Positions 639 to 35,130 of a DNA stretch of 64,000 nucleotides are shown piece by piece. The notes beneath the pieces are model-generated. The model was not told where the DNA came from. It made no database searches and saw only the letters and a program-made list of their open reading frames with translations. How positions within the stretch are numbered: the stretch's first letter is position 1; each line of letters opens with the position of its first letter. Location: the sequence record PP328843.1, one strand, 5' to 3'. The DNA comes from Escherichia phage 215Ecol030PP. A program made the translations under genes and the position numbers.

Positions 639-968
639 TCAATTAGAAAATAAATTTATCCAAGATTGTTCTTTAATTAAAAATGGCTCAGAATCATATG
701 CCATTAAACTCTGTGTGATTAGTCCTTTAAAAGGCCCATCAATAAATTCCATGGTAAAATATGGAATTTTATTCATTAGCCGTGCATTAGGAGCAGTACA
801 TAAAACTCTGCATCCTTTGAATACACCTTTTTGTAATTTGTATTGCTTGGGATAAAATTCGCTCAAAATGTTATTATTTGCTAAAATTTCAAAATGATTC
901 ACCAATTTATTTTTAATAGTTTTTGGCGAAAAATAAAGATATTCGAAAAGCTGAGTGTCTGTCATCAT
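639..968 (-). CDS. hypothetical protein (~109 aa from MMTDTQ start)
   Basis: ORF track 639..1019; internal Met gives ATGA overlap with upstream gene stop. Confidence 0.45.
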
Positions 969-1552
969 TGCATTCCGATTACGAAAAACTGTGGACGAGT
1001 AATACCACCAATACAACATTTAATATTACAGCAGCAGTGTACAGTGTCAATATGGACACTATAAATCTTATCCATATCAGGAGATTTGACAGGCTCATCA
1101 ATTATATACAAAATTCGCGAAAGCGATAAACCTCTGAACTTGCTTCCTTTATTACCAATAAAACTGCGTACAGAATCAGTAAATAAACGAAAACGTATAT
1201 CATCATTAGAATAACGTGAAAATTCCTTTTTAATGTTATTTGCAGAAATTTTAGCGTAAGCTGAAGTATTAGAAAGAACAATAACTGTTCCGCCATCATA
1301 CAACCAATTAGCAGCAAAGTTAGTCACAGCAATTGATTTACCAGATTGACGTCCACCGTCTAGTCGAAGTGTGCAATACTGTTTAAGTAAGTCTTCAAAT
1401 GGCGGGATATATTCGTTTTTACAAATTTCTTCTACTCTAGCATCAGAATGGTGTGTAAAAGCATTCATCAGGGATAGATAAGGACCAGTTAAAAATGTTC
1501 TCATTTTGTTCTCTCTAGGTTTGGGCCATTCCATGGCGCATGAATTGTCCAT
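965..1552 (-). CDS. P-loop NTPase-like protein (Walker A GGRQSGKS, Walker B-like YIIDEP); start ambiguous (1552/1534/1504)
   Basis: ORF track; Walker motifs read from translation. Confidence 0.55.
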   Translation of the reverse strand: MDNSCAMEWPKPRENKMRTFLTGPYLSLMNAFTHHSDARVEEICKNEYIPPFEDLLKQYCTLRLDGGRQSGKSIAVTNFAANWLYDGGTVIVLSNTSAYAKISANNIKKEFSRYSNDDIRFRLFTDSVRSFIGNKGSKFRGLSLSRILYIIDEPVKSPDMDKIYSVHIDTVHCCCNIKCCIGGITRPQFFVIGMQ

Positions 1553-2066: not shown

Positions 2067-2125
2067 TTTATCCCTCCAAGTAACTGTGAATATACTATCA
2101 CAGTTTTAGGAGAAAGTAAACAACT

Positions 2126-2656
<531 letters not shown>

Positions 2657-3112
2657 TTAAAAGAGGTTGTTCATTATTCGGTAAAGTGAAGGACCCATCA
2701 CATATTGCCACTGAGTACGAGGAATAAGAGCAAAAGCGTCCATCTCTGGAATCATAACGCCATCTTTATTTTCAAAATAAGACTCGCAATGGCAATTTCT
2801 AAACATCTCATGCTCTACTGGAATCGTATAATAAAATAACTGTAAGTCTTTATTACTAGAATATTTAAATACACCTAGGTCTTCTAGAAGGTCTGGATTA
2901 TAATCGATAAAACCAGTCTCTTCTGAGCATTCTCTTTTTGCAGCTTCCAGTGCATTCAAATCAGAACTTTCTACACGGCCCTTTGGAATATCCCAGCGAT
3001 GTGCCATCATTCCAGGCTTACGAGAACCAGTAACCCGACCCATAAATAAATCTTTATCTTCTGTCATAAAGATAATACCAGCTGATAGTGTTTTCATTTT
3101 AATTTCCTGCAT
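2657..3112 (-). CDS. nudE: Nudix hydrolase (T4 e.1/NudE-like)
   Basis: Nudix box ...RECSEETGF...; position immediately upstream of e as in T4. Confidence 0.85.
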   Translation of the reverse strand: MQEIKMKTLSAGIIFMTEDKDLFMGRVTGSRKPGMMAHRWDIPKGRVESSDLNALEAAKRECSEETGFIDYNPDLLEDLGVFKYSSNKDLQLFYYTIPVEHEMFRNCHCESYFENKDGVMIPEMDAFALIPRTQWQYVMGPSLYRIMNNLF

Positions 3113-3941: not shown

Positions 3942-4315
3942 CGTGATTCCTTAACAAATTTCATAATTTCATTAAATTCATACTCAGCAAGTTTAAGCTG
4001 GTGTTCCTTTTTAATCTTTTTACACTGAGCTTTCCAATCACGTACGCGTTTACGATAATGCCTTCCTTGATACCAGTATCCTACCCAATTTACGGGTACT
4101 AATAAAAGTGGAACTATTAATGGAAGAATTAGCATTAACACAAGTATTTCGCCAGAATCAATATCAGTCATAACATCTAAAACACCTCCAATAATCAATA
4201 GAATTACAAATGATATGAGTATAACAGGACCTATTAACACATCAGTAGAAATTATCTGACGCTTTGGTTCATACTTCACAGGTTTACTTGGAAGGTATAG
4301 TGATGGTTTTGACAT
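3923..4315 (-). CDS. small membrane protein, paralog family member 3 (start moved to MSKPS with SD TAAGGAA)
   Basis: ORF track 3923..4336; TM stretches; C-terminal KFVKESRCK. Confidence 0.5.
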   Translation of the reverse strand: MSKPSLYLPSKPVKYEPKRQIISTDVLIGPVILISFVILLIIGGVLDVMTDIDSGEILVLMLILPLIVPLLLVPVNWVGYWYQGRHYRKRVRDWKAQCKKIKKEHQLKLAEYEFNEIMKFVKESRCKSQN

Positions 4316-4898
4316 ATTCTCTACATTCCTTAACAAATTTTTCTAGTAATAAATCACTTTCAAAATTAGGATTTTCCACTAATTTATCAAAAAGATCATC
4401 AACAATATTCAAGATATTTCTTTTACTAAGAATACGTTTATTTTCATGCTTCGTTTCAGAATCAACTATAAGAGTAAAGAAATATTTCTTGCCCTGAAAT
4501 TTTACAGTAGTATCAATATAAAATAAATTTGACTTTTGTAAATTACGTTTAAACCATGCGTCACTTAAACTATAAACACCGAGATAATCAAAATCGTCGT
4601 TTAAATAACAAACCGTCCATTCAGGAGAAATGAAATCAGTAAATTCAACATCAAAATCACACGTCAATGAATGAATTGATTCAATACTGTTAATAAGTAT
4701 TCCAGGACGTATTAAAGACTTTTTACCTCTGGAAAATCTTCCAGAAAGACTTTCATCAGTTTCATATGAAGACCCCCAATAGTAATTACGTCCTTCTGCC
4801 ATGCGTTTAAGAGCATTTAGTAATTGGTCTGGAACATCAACCTGTCTTTGGAACTCTTCAAACATTGAATTGAAATCACTTTGCATTTTCATTTTCAT
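4284..4898 (-). CDS. hypothetical soluble protein (204 aa), shares C-terminal KFVKECRE motif
   Basis: ORF track. Confidence 0.5.
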   Translation of the reverse strand: MKMKMQSDFNSMFEEFQRQVDVPDQLLNALKRMAEGRNYYWGSSYETDESLSGRFSRGKKSLIRPGILINSIESIHSLTCDFDVEFTDFISPEWTVCYLNDDFDYLGVYSLSDAWFKRNLQKSNLFYIDTTVKFQGKKYFFTLIVDSETKHENKRILSKRNILNIVDDLFDKLVENPNFESDLLLEKFVKECREYVKTITIPSK

Positions 4899-7196: not shown

Positions 7197-7272
7197 TGGT
7201 CGAGGCAGTAGGGATCGAACCTACGACCCAGGACTTAGAAGGTCCTTGCTCTTCCTTCTGAGCTATGCCCCG
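7197..7272 (-). tRNA. tRNA-Arg (anticodon TCT), CCA encoded
   Basis: hand-folded cloverleaf: 7-bp acceptor, D stem GCTC/GAGC, anticodon loop CTTCTAA, T-loop TTCGATC. Confidence 0.8.
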
Positions 7273-7276
7273 TAAT

Positions 7277-7352
7277 TGGGGTGACCGATGGGAGTCGAAC
7301 CCATGACTACGAGAATCACAATCTCGAGTTCTACCAACTGAACTACGGCCAC
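7277..7352 (-). tRNA. tRNA-His (anticodon GTG), CCA encoded
   Basis: hand-folded cloverleaf; anticodon loop TTGTGAT; T-arm ATGGG/CCCAT. Confidence 0.75.
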
Positions 7353-7443
7353 ATTAATACCTACTCCAACAATCAAGATGTCTTCACACGAAATTAAGAG
7401 AAGAGTGATCAGTTCAACCCCTATAATCGCGTCAAGTAGATAT

Positions 7444-7465
7444 TAATGTGACAGTTGTCACAAAT
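7444..7465. promoter_or_regulatory. perfect CRP-consensus-like palindrome TGTGA-N6-TCACA (TAATGTGACAGTTGTCACAAAT)
   Basis: both CRP half-sites and 6-bp spacing exact, A/T flanks; lies 3' of tRNA-Asn. Confidence 0.4.
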
Positions 7466-7466
7466 T

Positions 7467-7541
7467 TGGCGGACGTGATAGGATTCGAACCTATAACCAA
7501 TCGCTTAACAGGCGATCGCTCTGCCATTGAGCTACACATCC
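7467..7541 (-). tRNA. tRNA-Asn (anticodon GTT), CCA encoded
   Basis: hand-folded cloverleaf; anticodon stem ATCGC/GCGAT, loop CTGTTAA. Confidence 0.75.
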
Positions 7542-7545
7542 AAAT

Positions 7546-7632
7546 TGGTGGGGAGTGATGGAGTCGAACCACCCGAGTCGCAATGACAATGGATTTACAG
7601 TCCACACCGCTACCTCTACGGGATAACTCCCC
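7546..7632 (-). tRNA. tRNA-Tyr (anticodon GTA), type II with long variable arm, CCA encoded
   Basis: perfect 7-bp acceptor GGGGAGT/ACTCCCC; anticodon loop CTGTAAA. Confidence 0.75.
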
Positions 7633-7645
7633 TTAATTCTTAATT

Positions 7646-7720
7646 TGGTGGCCCTGGGTGGAATTGAACCACCATCTGGCGATTATGAGTCGCTTGCTTG
7701 AACCTTCCAGCTACAGGGCC
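7646..7720 (-). tRNA. tRNA with anticodon CAT (Met or lysidine-modified Ile, as T4 tRNA-Ile)
   Basis: perfect acceptor GGCCCTG/CAGGGCC, T-arm GGTGG/CCACC, anticodon loop CTCATAA. Confidence 0.75.
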
Positions 7721-7728
7721 AAATTTTC

Positions 7729-8214
7729 TTATTTTATGTAATATTTATTTAAAAACTTTCTAGCTTGAGTATGGCTAACATTTATAGCGTTTGCATAATT
7801 TTTAATAAAACCTCGTTCATCCATATTAAAATTTTCTAATATTTTTAATCGTCTAGTTATCTCATCTTGACTTAAGGTACTTGCATTATTTTTAGAAATT
7901 TTTTCTAAGGACTGTGCCGAGTGTTTTCGACCATTAAAATTAAAATTTTTAGATTTTGGAGGAAATCTAGCATTTAATCTCGCATCTTTTGTATTTTGAT
8001 TATTAGTTGCGCAATATATGTTATTTAATGAATATGGTCCTTTATCGCCGAAACGGCACATGCAGTATTCATGACCCTTTCTTCCACGCTTATCATAATT
8101 TCCCGTTGATTTCCACCAATGCAGCCATTCATCAAAAGTTAAATTCCATTCAATGTTTCTACGTATAGCAGAATTCCGCTGAGAAATATATTTTGCATAA
8201 TCTTCTTTCATCAC
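7729..8214 (-). CDS. putative HNH-family homing endonuclease embedded in the tRNA cluster (161 aa, GTG start)
   Basis: motif GHEYCMCRFGDKGPYSLNNIYCATNNQN resembles HNH core; basic C-terminal DNA-binding-like tail. Confidence 0.5.
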   Translation of the reverse strand: MMKEDYAKYISQRNSAIRRNIEWNLTFDEWLHWWKSTGNYDKRGRKGHEYCMCRFGDKGPYSLNNIYCATNNQNTKDARLNARFPPKSKNFNFNGRKHSAQSLEKISKNNASTLSQDEITRRLKILENFNMDERGFIKNYANAINVSHTQARKFLNKYYIK

Positions 8215-8258
8215 AAATTTCTCTACTTATTCAATACACTGAGCTAAATCAGCAAAAC

Positions 8259-8348
8259 TGGCGGAGGCGATAGGATTTGAACCTATGAGTCGCCGGAGCG
8301 ACTGCCGGTTTTCAAGACCGGTGCATTAAACCACTCTGCCACGCCTCC
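8259..8348 (-). tRNA. tRNA-Ser (anticodon TGA), type II, CCA encoded
   Basis: acceptor GGAGGCG/CGCCTCC; anticodon stem CCGGT/ACCGG, loop CTTGAAA; long variable arm. Confidence 0.8.
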
Positions 8349-8350
8349 AG

Positions 8351-8424
8351 TCTCCGCGGCAGGATTTGAACCTACGACATTCTGCTCCCAAAGCAGACGC
8401 TCTACCAAACTGAGCTACACGGAG
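8351..8424 (-). tRNA. tRNA-Pro (anticodon TGG), CCA not encoded; 2 nt from tRNA-Ser (dimeric precursor geometry)
   Basis: D stem GCTC/GAGC; anticodon stem TCTGC/GCAGA, loop TTTGGGA. Confidence 0.8.
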
Positions 8425-8434
8425 TAAATTAAAT

Positions 8435-8508
<74 letters not shown>

Positions 8509-8513
8509 AAATT

Positions 8514-8600
8514 TGGTGCGAGAAGTGGGACTCGAACCCACAAGGAAATCATTCCGCAGCATTTTAAGTGCTGTGCCTTTACCAATTTGGCCATTCTCGC
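8514..8600 (-). tRNA. tRNA-Leu (anticodon TAA), type II, CCA encoded
   Basis: acceptor GCGAGAA/TTCTCGC; anticodon stem CAGCA/TGCTG, loop CTTAAAA. Confidence 0.8.
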
Positions 8601-8601
8601 G

Positions 8602-8674
8602 CTGGGAATAAAGGACTCGAACCTTTGCATCCTGGAATCAAAATCCAGTGCCTTACCAACTTGGCTAATTCCCA
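8602..8674 (-). tRNA. tRNA-Gln (anticodon TTG), CCA not encoded; 1 nt from tRNA-Leu (dimeric precursor geometry)
   Basis: acceptor TGGGAAT/ATTCCCA; anticodon stem CTGGA/TCCAG, loop TTTTGAT. Confidence 0.8.

Positions 8675-31989: not shown

Positions 31990-35130
<3,141 letters not shown>

Follow-up and report, generated by a model that had tools for sequence, protein, structure and literature searches.

The denV, vs.8 and vs.7 locus

We analysed a 64,000-nucleotide stretch of Escherichia phage 215Ecol030PP (PP328843.1), called the window below, and in it two overlapping genes, vs.8, which encodes a small P-loop protein, and vs.7, together with the leader that precedes them. The window belongs to a T4-type genome: its bases 600-1700 match 794 phage records, with 99.3% nucleotide identity to several Tequatrovirus genomes. 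Annotated Tequatrovirus relatives and the T4 record name the two open reading frames (ORFs) Vs.8 (the P-loop protein) and Vs.7. The T4 Vs.8 and Vs.7 proteins are near-identical to those of the window, vs.8 differing at a few residues. The initial annotation, made from the letters of the window, had matched the P-loop product to no T4 NTPase; this is corrected here, since the ORF and its partner are the orthologues of T4 vs.8 and vs.7. It had also placed the pair upstream of denV. All genes of the locus lie on the minus strand, so that vs.8 and vs.7 are downstream of denV in the direction of transcription, which runs through nudE, e, denV, vs.8, vs.7, a GrcA-type ORF and a 73-aa ORF (Table 1). 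The ratio of non-synonymous to synonymous substitution rates (dN/dS) for vs.8 and vs.7 was 0.02-0.3 in several pairwise comparisons, i.e. purifying selection, and both ORFs are therefore real genes and not chance frames.

The mechanically called P-loop ORF is real but probably mis-delimited at its 5′ end. From sequence comparison, the true start of vs.8 is most likely ATG 1504 (179 aa) and not ATG 1552, because homologues begin there, the frame of the extension shifts in T4, and the intervening stretch is conserved as non-coding sequence. In a collection of 5.8 billion proteins and in a library of 1.84 billion representatives, homologues are almost all 160-185 aa long and start at the Met equivalent to 1504. 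In the T4 reference, vs.8 is extended to 219 aa in another frame, an extension made possible by an 8-nt indel relative to the window. ATG 1552 itself sits inside a conserved AUGGAC of the leader, and positions 1505-1649 are kept as non-coding sequence across genera. Annotated vs.8 genes thus start too far upstream, at 219 aa in T4 (NC_000866, 64253-64912; 4254-4913 of our T4 locus L002) and at 195 aa in the Tequatrovirus record examined, and such extended annotations run through the conserved leader in non-conserved frames.

Table 1. Features of the vs.8 locus, in order of transcription (window coordinates)
Feature	Position	Strand	Remarks
nudE	2657-3112	minus	
e (lysozyme)	2126-2620	minus	
denV	1650-2066	minus	
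Conserved non-coding leader	1505-1649	minus	denV stop to vs.8 start; ~145 nt, G+C-rich for this genome
5′ leader hairpin	1611-1628	minus	CCUCAUGAUUCUGUGAGG; longer hairpin in other genera, outer CUCA/UGAG stem kept, judged by eye
51-nt RNA motif	1557-1607	minus	H1 closing stem; H2 ACCU-GUAAUA-AGGU; H3 GC..GC; junction GGUAA
P-loop ORF, mechanical (vs.8)	965-1552	minus	195 aa from first ATG
5′ extension of mechanical ORF	1505-1552	minus	16 codons; probably untranslated, part of leader
3′ leader hairpin	1525-1537	minus	GCCA-UGGAA-UGGC, GGA in loop; ~20 nt ahead of ribosome-binding site
vs.8, probable true coding sequence	965-1504	minus	179 aa, MRTFLT...VIGMQ; predicted single RecA-like terminase-type ATPase domain
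Walker A/P-loop GGRQSGKS	1334-1357	minus	terminase-type R-Q-x-G-K-S/T; D-G-G-R-Q-S-G-K invariant in close homologues; aligned to gp17 SRQLGKT
R-G dipeptide	1130-1135	minus	few residues ahead of Walker B; R124 and G125 (179-aa numbering) invariant; aligned by hhalign with RG of gp17 AVRGNSF
Walker B and catalytic Glu, LYIIDEP	1091-1111	minus	I and E invariant, D and P nearly so; aligned to gp17 MIYIDEC
Last β strand and C-terminus FFVIGMQ	968-988	minus	G and Q invariant; last strand E172-177 in AlphaFold2 model
ATGA stop/start overlap, vs.8-vs.7	965-968	minus	read directly
vs.7 coding sequence	639-968	minus	109 aa, from second ATG of ORF 639-1019
vs.7 repeat 1	792-842	minus	conserved G-P-F-K-G core
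vs.7 repeat 2	702-752	minus	conserved G-P-F-K-G core
GrcA-type autonomous glycyl-radical protein (vs.6)	269-631	minus	Pfam Gly_radical, E 2e-18
73-aa ORF, vs.5-like	48-269	minus	position where annotated relatives have vs.5 (222 nt)

vs.8 and the ATPase sub-domain of the large terminase

The Walker A motif and the Walker B-like YIIDEP read in the initial annotation are both present, the latter as LYIIDEP, and vary little or not at all among homologues. When 19-23 homologues, down to 40% identity, were aligned, the invariant columns comprised T-L-x-x-D-G-G-R-Q-S-G-K, two arginines, R-G, I-x-x-E and a C-terminal G-x-Q. The large terminase gene of the window, encoding gp17, lies at 33295-35127 on the plus strand, and its product carries SRQLGKT where vs.8 carries GRQSGKS. 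Profile-profile alignment (hhalign) of 35 vs.8 relatives with 16 T4-type large terminases (TerL) gave a probability of 95.9% and E 5.3e-9, with the P-loop, the R-G dipeptide and Walker B in register. The extended alignment pairs vs.8 residues 3-163 with gp17 118-280. It stops, at vs.8 163 = gp17 280, just before the final strand on which vs.8 ends in VIGMQ. This last strand, which is outside the aligned range, would correspond to the KIIITTT strand of gp17, where we take the terminase coupling motif (TTT in gp17) to be located.

The AlphaFold2 model of vs.8, built from 19 sequences, consists of one α/β domain (predicted local distance difference test (pLDDT) 81; predicted template modelling score (pTM) 0.82). 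Compared with the Protein Data Bank (PDB) by Foldseek, it matched domains of superfamily 1 and 2 (SF1/SF2) helicases and the packaging ATPases of P74-26 and phi29. Among the matches listed there was no kinase or zeta toxin, and KaiC was weak (E 0.008-0.02). The initial annotation had left the fold open between kinase, AAA/RecA-like and zeta-toxin-like; the predicted fold is RecA-like, and kinase, AAA+ and zeta toxin fell away. Its view that the product is neither thymidine kinase nor deoxynucleoside monophosphate kinase holds, no known T-even housekeeping kinase having emerged as a relative, whereas the nucleotide-metabolism role that it had entertained is not supported by fold and profile matches, which are to helicase- and terminase-type RecA domains. 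A role for vs.8 as a kinase of nucleotides or nucleosides, or as some further enzyme of the nucleotide pool, is extremely improbable: the protein does have a P-loop, and the wider region includes tk and additional nucleotide genes, but its Walker B is of the hhhhDE form, its strand order is RecA-type, its top structural matches are helicases and terminases with no kinases among those listed, and Pfam TK was touched by a single one of the 35 family members (E 0.02).

Searches against family collections placed vs.8 in PHROG 1488, of function unknown (E 2.8e-79, residues 19-195 of the 195-aa form against 2-177 of the 177 profile positions), with a weak match to the large-terminase family PHROG 2 (E 1.5e-5). 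A Pfam scan gave no match above threshold, the nearest being AAA_14 (E 0.031) and Terminase_6N (E 0.12), but sub-threshold Terminase_6N matches occurred in 14 of the 35 family members (best E 1.4e-4). No Pfam helicase family reached threshold for the family, DEAD being seen in 1/35 members at E 0.077. NCBIfam gave nothing above threshold, PADLOC only HerA (E 0.039, 10 bits), and searches of PDB sequences with the single protein nothing useful. The earlier description of vs.8 as an uncharacterised P-loop NTPase therefore remains apt, since no curated family reaches threshold and the literature searched establishes no function. The library of 1.84 billion representatives contains 55 members of the family at E up to 1e-3, nearly all of ~160-185 aa and none above 260 aa. 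In the most distant small proteins resembling vs.8 (P0066, P0071, P0077, P0078, P0080, P0083 and P0084), the P-loop G-K is replaced by G-H and the Walker B D-E is absent; they are probably non-catalytic, inactivated relatives.

Size sets vs.8 apart from true terminases. With 179 aa, it is too short for the lid sub-domain, the nuclease domain or a second RecA domain, and the nuclease family Terminase_6C (PF17289), which genuine TerLs carry, was not matched in it. Compared with gp17, a 610-aa protein whose ATPase sub-domain I (PDB 2o0h; Terminase_6N) is the part it resembles, vs.8 is without residues 1-117 and everything past ~290, a portion which, in gp17, includes both lid and nuclease. It is also encoded in the early region on the opposite strand, away from the small terminase and portal genes, and evolves far faster. 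The N-terminal domain of phi29 gp16 (PDB 5hd9; Foldseek TM 0.45-0.48) is, like vs.8, a minimal ATPase of the terminase clan without nuclease. In phi29, gp16 has in addition a C-terminal domain, acts on the prohead with pRNA and is essential, whereas vs.8 has no such C-terminal domain and is dispensable in some phages. RecA1 domains of SF2 helicases (Mfd, RIG-I, DEAD-box proteins) share the fold; vs.8 differs from these proteins by the absence of a second RecA domain and by its terminase-type P-loop. Matches in BFVD (from Proteus phiP4-3, Vibrio JSF10, Aeromonas Aes012, 201phi2-1 and others) are uncharacterised proteins of 140-185 aa with the same predicted fold and 12-25% identity.

Taken together, vs.8 is very probably a minimal, stand-alone, single RecA-like (ASCE) ATPase core whose nearest identifiable relative is ATPase sub-domain I of gp17. 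As every residue of the catalytic set is invariant, it probably binds and hydrolyses ATP; on its own it would be unable to translocate or cut DNA. A functional terminase, a helicase, an AAA+ protein, a kinase and a zeta toxin were each considered for vs.8 and set aside. For an ORF of T4 without a function, the assignment to a minimal terminase-type ATPase, and not to a kinase or a toxin, reduces the number of experiments worth doing.

Comparison with the T4 vs region, as noted above, identified the two ORFs, and it gave no similarity to RegB. The candidate endoribonuclease was rejected: BLASTP of vs.8 against T4 RegB gave E 10, and neither ORF had a Pfam hit to REGB_T4 at E up to 1. The true RegB gene sits elsewhere in the cluster. 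Labels such as ‘endoribonuclease’ or ‘RegB domain-containing’, found on vs.7 and vs.8 in records such as MK962750 (CM8), MN850590, LN881734 and OK274152, look like propagated mis-annotation.

The vs.8 leader and its 51-nt RNA motif

The leader is better conserved than the gene that follows it. Its 90-nt core retains 71-83% identity in loci whose vs.8 coding sequences share 50-58% of their nucleotides and 34-46% of their amino acids. A leader profile searched with nhmmer was found once per locus and on the vs.8 strand in 34 of the 35 loci; it detected no leader in the remaining one (L036). In L042 the leader scored 73 bits though vs.8 is only ~30% identical there (29-34% depending on method) and vs.7 is missing. 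Four loci carry an inserted internal-protein-like gene; there the full element is found upstream of the insert, and in three of them a partial 3′ copy adjoins vs.8. The element is tandemly duplicated in L013 and L023, and a second, diverged copy was read by eye in L034. Duplicated copies differ in sequence and keep their helices, as illustrated by H3, which takes the forms GAGAC-CGC-GUCUC, GCC-CGC-GGC and GUC-CGC-GAC.

The most conserved part of the leader is a 51-nt motif with the pattern ACCUGUAAnAAGGUC.AGCC...GCGGUAA, flanked by a covarying stem. A putative three-helix structure was built by hand on this core, then tested on 30 distinct instances. Standard pairs occupied 88% of the cells, compared to 80.5 +/- 1.3% in shuffles, and the covariation score was 0.257, compared to 0.112; in both cases, none of 500 shuffles reached the observed value, a result to be read with the caveat that related sequences may beat all shuffles without structure and that the structure was derived from these same sequences. 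Slid controls were 23-56% paired. The innermost pair of H1 occurs in four forms (AU 10, UA 9, CG 7, UG 3). A covariance model (R1) retrieved the motif at its position in the window with 63 bits and E 6e-18, as the sole copy in the 64 kb.

Further elements lie on either side of the motif (Table 1). Stems of the 3′ hairpin show compensatory changes, GCCA/UGGC being replaced by GGCA/UGCC (L016), GACA/UGUC (L034) or CAGCA/UGCUG (L014). In T-even leaders, a second conserved GGA (AUGGAC) and the GGA-loop hairpin are found 3′ of the 51-nt motif, and the leaders have two or three GGA sites in all, ~18-20 nt apart. Such sites may resemble those bound by CsrA; the literature searched contained nothing relevant on CsrA with T4. 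Folding of the single leader sequence was no better than that of shuffles (z +0.49), and RNAalifold on 12 full leaders gave a weak consensus only (-7.5 kcal/mol). No match to a sigma-70 promoter or a terminator was found in the leader, and manual inspection of it yielded no convincing MotA box or late promoter. The leader probably controls the expression or stability of vs.8/vs.7.

The motif is also present outside T4-type phages, as shown by a pattern scan of IMG/VR and by blastn against GenBank phages. In rV5-like Vequintavirus it is 90-95% identical over ~45 nt (L129 2501-2545), in the N4-like Klebsiella phage Pylas 93.8% identical over 96 nt (L130 2501-2596), and it occurs in L050, L071, L101, L110, L116 and L125. 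No vs.8 homologue was found within 1.5 kb downstream of the motif in the rV5-like, N4-like and other contigs. In both annotated records examined (rV5-like and Pylas), it falls in unannotated intergenic DNA; tRNA genes of the same orientation are close by in these two and in five further contigs. Neither the motif nor the leader had a relevant match in Rfam 15 (searched to E 10 for the window and to E 1 for 14 related loci); the motif had none in complete E. coli genomes, and its sequence was not found in the literature searched. The CCUGUAA of the H2 loop region may resemble the anticodon loop of tRNA-Tyr, and the phage's own tRNA-Tyr carries CUGUAAA.

The strength of the link between leader and gene bears on another explanation, in which vs.8 is an RNA-dependent ATPase working on or with its own leader RNA, by autoregulation or as a ribonucleoprotein loosely comparable to the phi29 ATPase with pRNA. 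The leader is tied more tightly to vs.8 than vs.7 is, as L042 illustrates, and is better conserved than the vs.8 protein, whose fold equals domain 1 of DEAD-box proteins. Nevertheless, the motif contigs without a downstream vs.8 homologue, and the single RecA domain of vs.8, without the additional RecA domain with which helicases clamp RNA, make such a function very unlikely. A wider proposal would join leader and vs.8 in a new early module acting where phage and host immunity meet. One part would be a new class of small structured phage RNA, the 51-nt motif with its loop reminiscent of tRNA-Tyr, which would have passed horizontally between T4-like, rV5-like and N4-like phages, mostly near tRNA clusters, and could serve as a decoy or processing signal; the other would be a mimic of the terminase ATPase, which cassette exchange keeps diverse because sensors such as Avs2 target it. 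As a whole this proposal is speculative and we rate it unlikely. The RNA motif taken separately, supported by covariation and common to unrelated virulent enterobacterial phages, may if functional be the more valuable lead.

The window also contains ten tRNA genes on the minus strand (7197-8674; Gln, Leu, Gly, Pro, Ser, Met, Tyr, Asn, His and Arg), with a 540-nt gap between tRNA-Met and tRNA-Ser. This set is, we presume, unlike the set of eight in T4.

vs.7, exchange of vs.8 and a possible link to host immunity

vs.7 corresponds to PHROG 2049, of function unknown (E 3e-54, residues 1-109 against 1-105 of 105), and tblastn found matches to it in 929 phage records. It had no match in the PDB or in the Pfam copy searched; vs.7 homologues carry a precomputed PF26834.1, and the absence of a PF26834 hit probably means that the model is not in that copy. 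Scans of vs.7 with NCBIfam and PADLOC models likewise stayed below threshold. Its AlphaFold2 model, from five sequences, was poor (pLDDT 54). In an alignment of 18 homologues, the N-terminal 35 residues are variable and optional, and the core carries two motifs of the form x-G-P-F-K-G-x-x-hydrophobic. The two halves of the protein align with each other by hhalign (probability 85%, E 5.7e-6). vs.7 is thus a fast-evolving small orphan protein of 78-148 aa built on a duplicated GPFKG motif. It is unrelated to any part of gp17 (hhalign, probability 0.07%), and the idea of a split terminase in which vs.7 supplies the lid or nuclease was rejected. A likeness of GPFKG to NusG-type KOW motifs was considered; Pfam sees no KOW, and we do not claim it.

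The initial annotation had presented vs.7 as a coupled partner of the NTPase. The ATGA overlap that it cited is present, and vs.7 would be translated from the start codon overlapping the vs.8 stop. Overlapping stop and start codons are, however, the rule along the whole tk-vs-e cluster, so that ATGA alone is weak evidence of a dedicated vs.8-vs.7 pair. Adjacency is confirmed: of 34 informative IMG/VR loci, 31 have a vs.7 homologue as the next gene after vs.8, and the two mostly overlap by 4 nt or 1 nt. The partnership fares less well, as vs.8 occurs without vs.7 in several lineages (L020/L037, L036, L041 and L042, i.e. Gelderlandvirus-like loci, L036 and two diverged T4-like contigs) and is swapped while vs.7 stays constant, the same vs.7 allele (97% identical) standing beside vs.8 alleles only 42% identical. 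vs.7 is regarded as a frequent, dispensable neighbour of vs.8 and not as an obligatory subunit.

vs.8 is an accessory gene, absent from many T4-type phages and evolving far faster than gp17. It was detected in 1009 phage records by tblastn, compared to 1475 with a T4-type TerL (E up to 1e-80). T4-like phages of Acinetobacter, Aeromonas and Vibrio, prominent in the TerL list, are not among the leading organism names for vs.8, and in phage Lutter vs.8 is frameshifted. Across genera, vs.8 proteins are 34-46% identical where the gp17 ATPase domain is ~85% identical. Exchange is seen between JS98 (L010) and L025, a relative of 170.5 kb: the flanks share 93-100% of their nucleotides, and exactly the vs.8 ORF, at locus positions ~3960-4550, is 30-68% identical in nucleotides and 42% in amino acids, the adjoining vs.7 remaining at 97%. 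This difference is an allele replacement of vs.8, with leader and vs.7 as homology arms. Cassette exchange of this sort fits diversifying pressure such as immune sensing; the exact replacement is the pattern expected under immune pressure, and it supplies natural allele pairs.

These data bear on whether vs.8 is an auxiliary ATPase of DNA packaging or DNA metabolism, for instance a truncated gp17 paralogue that binds the small terminase, the portal or gp17 and tunes or poisons the motor, or a helicase-like loader, with vs.7 as adaptor. Terminase-type motifs with catalytic residues kept, and a fold shared with the gp17, P74-26 and phi29 packaging ATPases, speak for such a role. It becomes unlikely when the gene itself is considered: vs.8 belongs to the early, hyperplastic region instead of accompanying genes 16, 17 and 20, and gp17 is on the other strand; it is undetected in roughly a third of the phage records with T4-type TerL, frameshifted in Lutter, cassette-swapped while gp17 stays ~85% identical, and without gp17 residues 1-117.

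The genomic setting of vs.8 points in another direction. Its position on the early strand, between denV or ip genes and vs.7/vs.6, is conserved, and in T4, T4-type phages and one diverged relative it heads a tightly packed string from vs.8 to vs.3. Beyond vs.5 the string runs on to vs.3 and regB in T4, a T4-type phage and L042; in the window it runs off the end past the vs.5-like ORF. One report (PMC13243611, 2026) identifies T4 vs.3 as TadIV-1, a sponge that counters type IV Thoeris, and Vs.4 antagonises CBASS (PMC10449767); vs.8 therefore heads a string rich in counter-defence genes. A second report (PMC13601566, Nature Communications, August 2026) screened T4 proteins with AlphaFold 3 against EcAvs2, a terminase sensor, and picked vs.8, described there as an uncharacterised ATPase-like protein homologous to the T4 terminase ATPase with Walker A and B kept, and toxic on co-expression with EcAvs2. 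The authors leave the role of vs.8 open, noting that activators of this sort may be anti-defence proteins. Ksap1 and Ksap2, the non-terminase Avs2 activators presented there, are like vs.8 small, lineage-restricted phage proteins; they are described as triggering Avs2 and as similar to the terminase ATPase sheet. By its description in that report, vs.8 differs in that Walker A/B and sequence homology to terminase are stated for it. The terminase-like nature of vs.8 was thus already published in 2026, and the gene pair was already known as T4 vs.8/vs.7; the cassette exchange, the corrected vs.8 start and the conserved RNA motif are what the present analysis adds.

A part for vs.8/vs.7 in the contest between phage and host immunity is plausible. 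More specifically, vs.8 might act at this interface as a look-alike of the terminase ATPase, a proposal that we make tentatively and regard as doubtful. In one version, vs.8 may occupy or mislead host factors aimed at terminase; alternatively, its task may be an early one that depends on ATP and that Avs2 has come to recognise. As an explanation of the whole, we favour, with moderate confidence, a terminase-type ATPase core (vs.8), perhaps at the immunity interface, a dispensable neighbour (vs.7) and a regulatory leader. vs.8 bears, moreover, on the question why phages keep small terminase look-alikes that trigger Avs2-type sensors.

Several observations count against this explanation. On the side of the terminase relationship, RecA1 domains of SF2 helicases score as high as terminases in fold searches; these searches do not split helicase from terminase, and the case for the relationship is therefore built on motifs and profiles. 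By direct BLASTP, vs.8 gave no significant match to gp17 in the correct register, a search of PDB sequences with a hidden Markov model of vs.8 found nothing, and among curated families Terminase_6N (PF03237) remained at 12.5 bits, below its cut-off of 22. ATP binding and hydrolysis by vs.8 are predictions from its residues, and a passive decoy would not need invariant catalytic residues. The near-independent alleles of vs.8 and vs.7 argue against a specific complex. As to immunity, the sole reported experiment (PMC13601566) has vs.8 activate a defence, EcAvs2, which is the opposite of counter-defence. Among vs.3-vs.8 tested singly, only vs.3 impaired type IV Thoeris (PMC13243611).

The same two reports inform on the toxin-like role suggested initially, in which vs.8 and vs.7 would be an NTPase and its neutralising partner in the style of zeta/epsilon. 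A small NTPase with an overlapping small ORF has the right outline, and a neighbouring T4 fragment, ‘Part II’, reportedly resisted cloning (PMC13243611). The vs.3-vs.8 block was, however, cloned in the same study; the whole Part I block and single-gene plasmids for each of Vs.3-Vs.8, under ‘the promoter of vs.8’, were constructed, and the toxicity reported in PMC13601566 was for co-expression with EcAvs2. There is no PADLOC, zeta or toxin-model signal, and vs.8 exists without vs.7 in several lineages. We consider this role highly improbable, and even added together the toxin and kinase explanations receive very little probability.

Some minor features of the locus were also recorded. The 73-aa vs.5-like ORF is more widely kept than vs.7 and directly follows vs.8 in loci without vs.7. 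In phage PG7 (L017), an ATG-first ORF call fuses a vs.7 fragment to this vs.5-like ORF. No ipII or ipIII lies between denV and e in the window (2067-2125), whereas T4 has both (L002 5357-6503). Other genera have internal-protein-like genes (MKTY.EFI...) in the interval from denV to vs.8, in some cases on the downstream side of the leader. The denV-vs.8/e locus is a hot spot of ip gene gain and loss.

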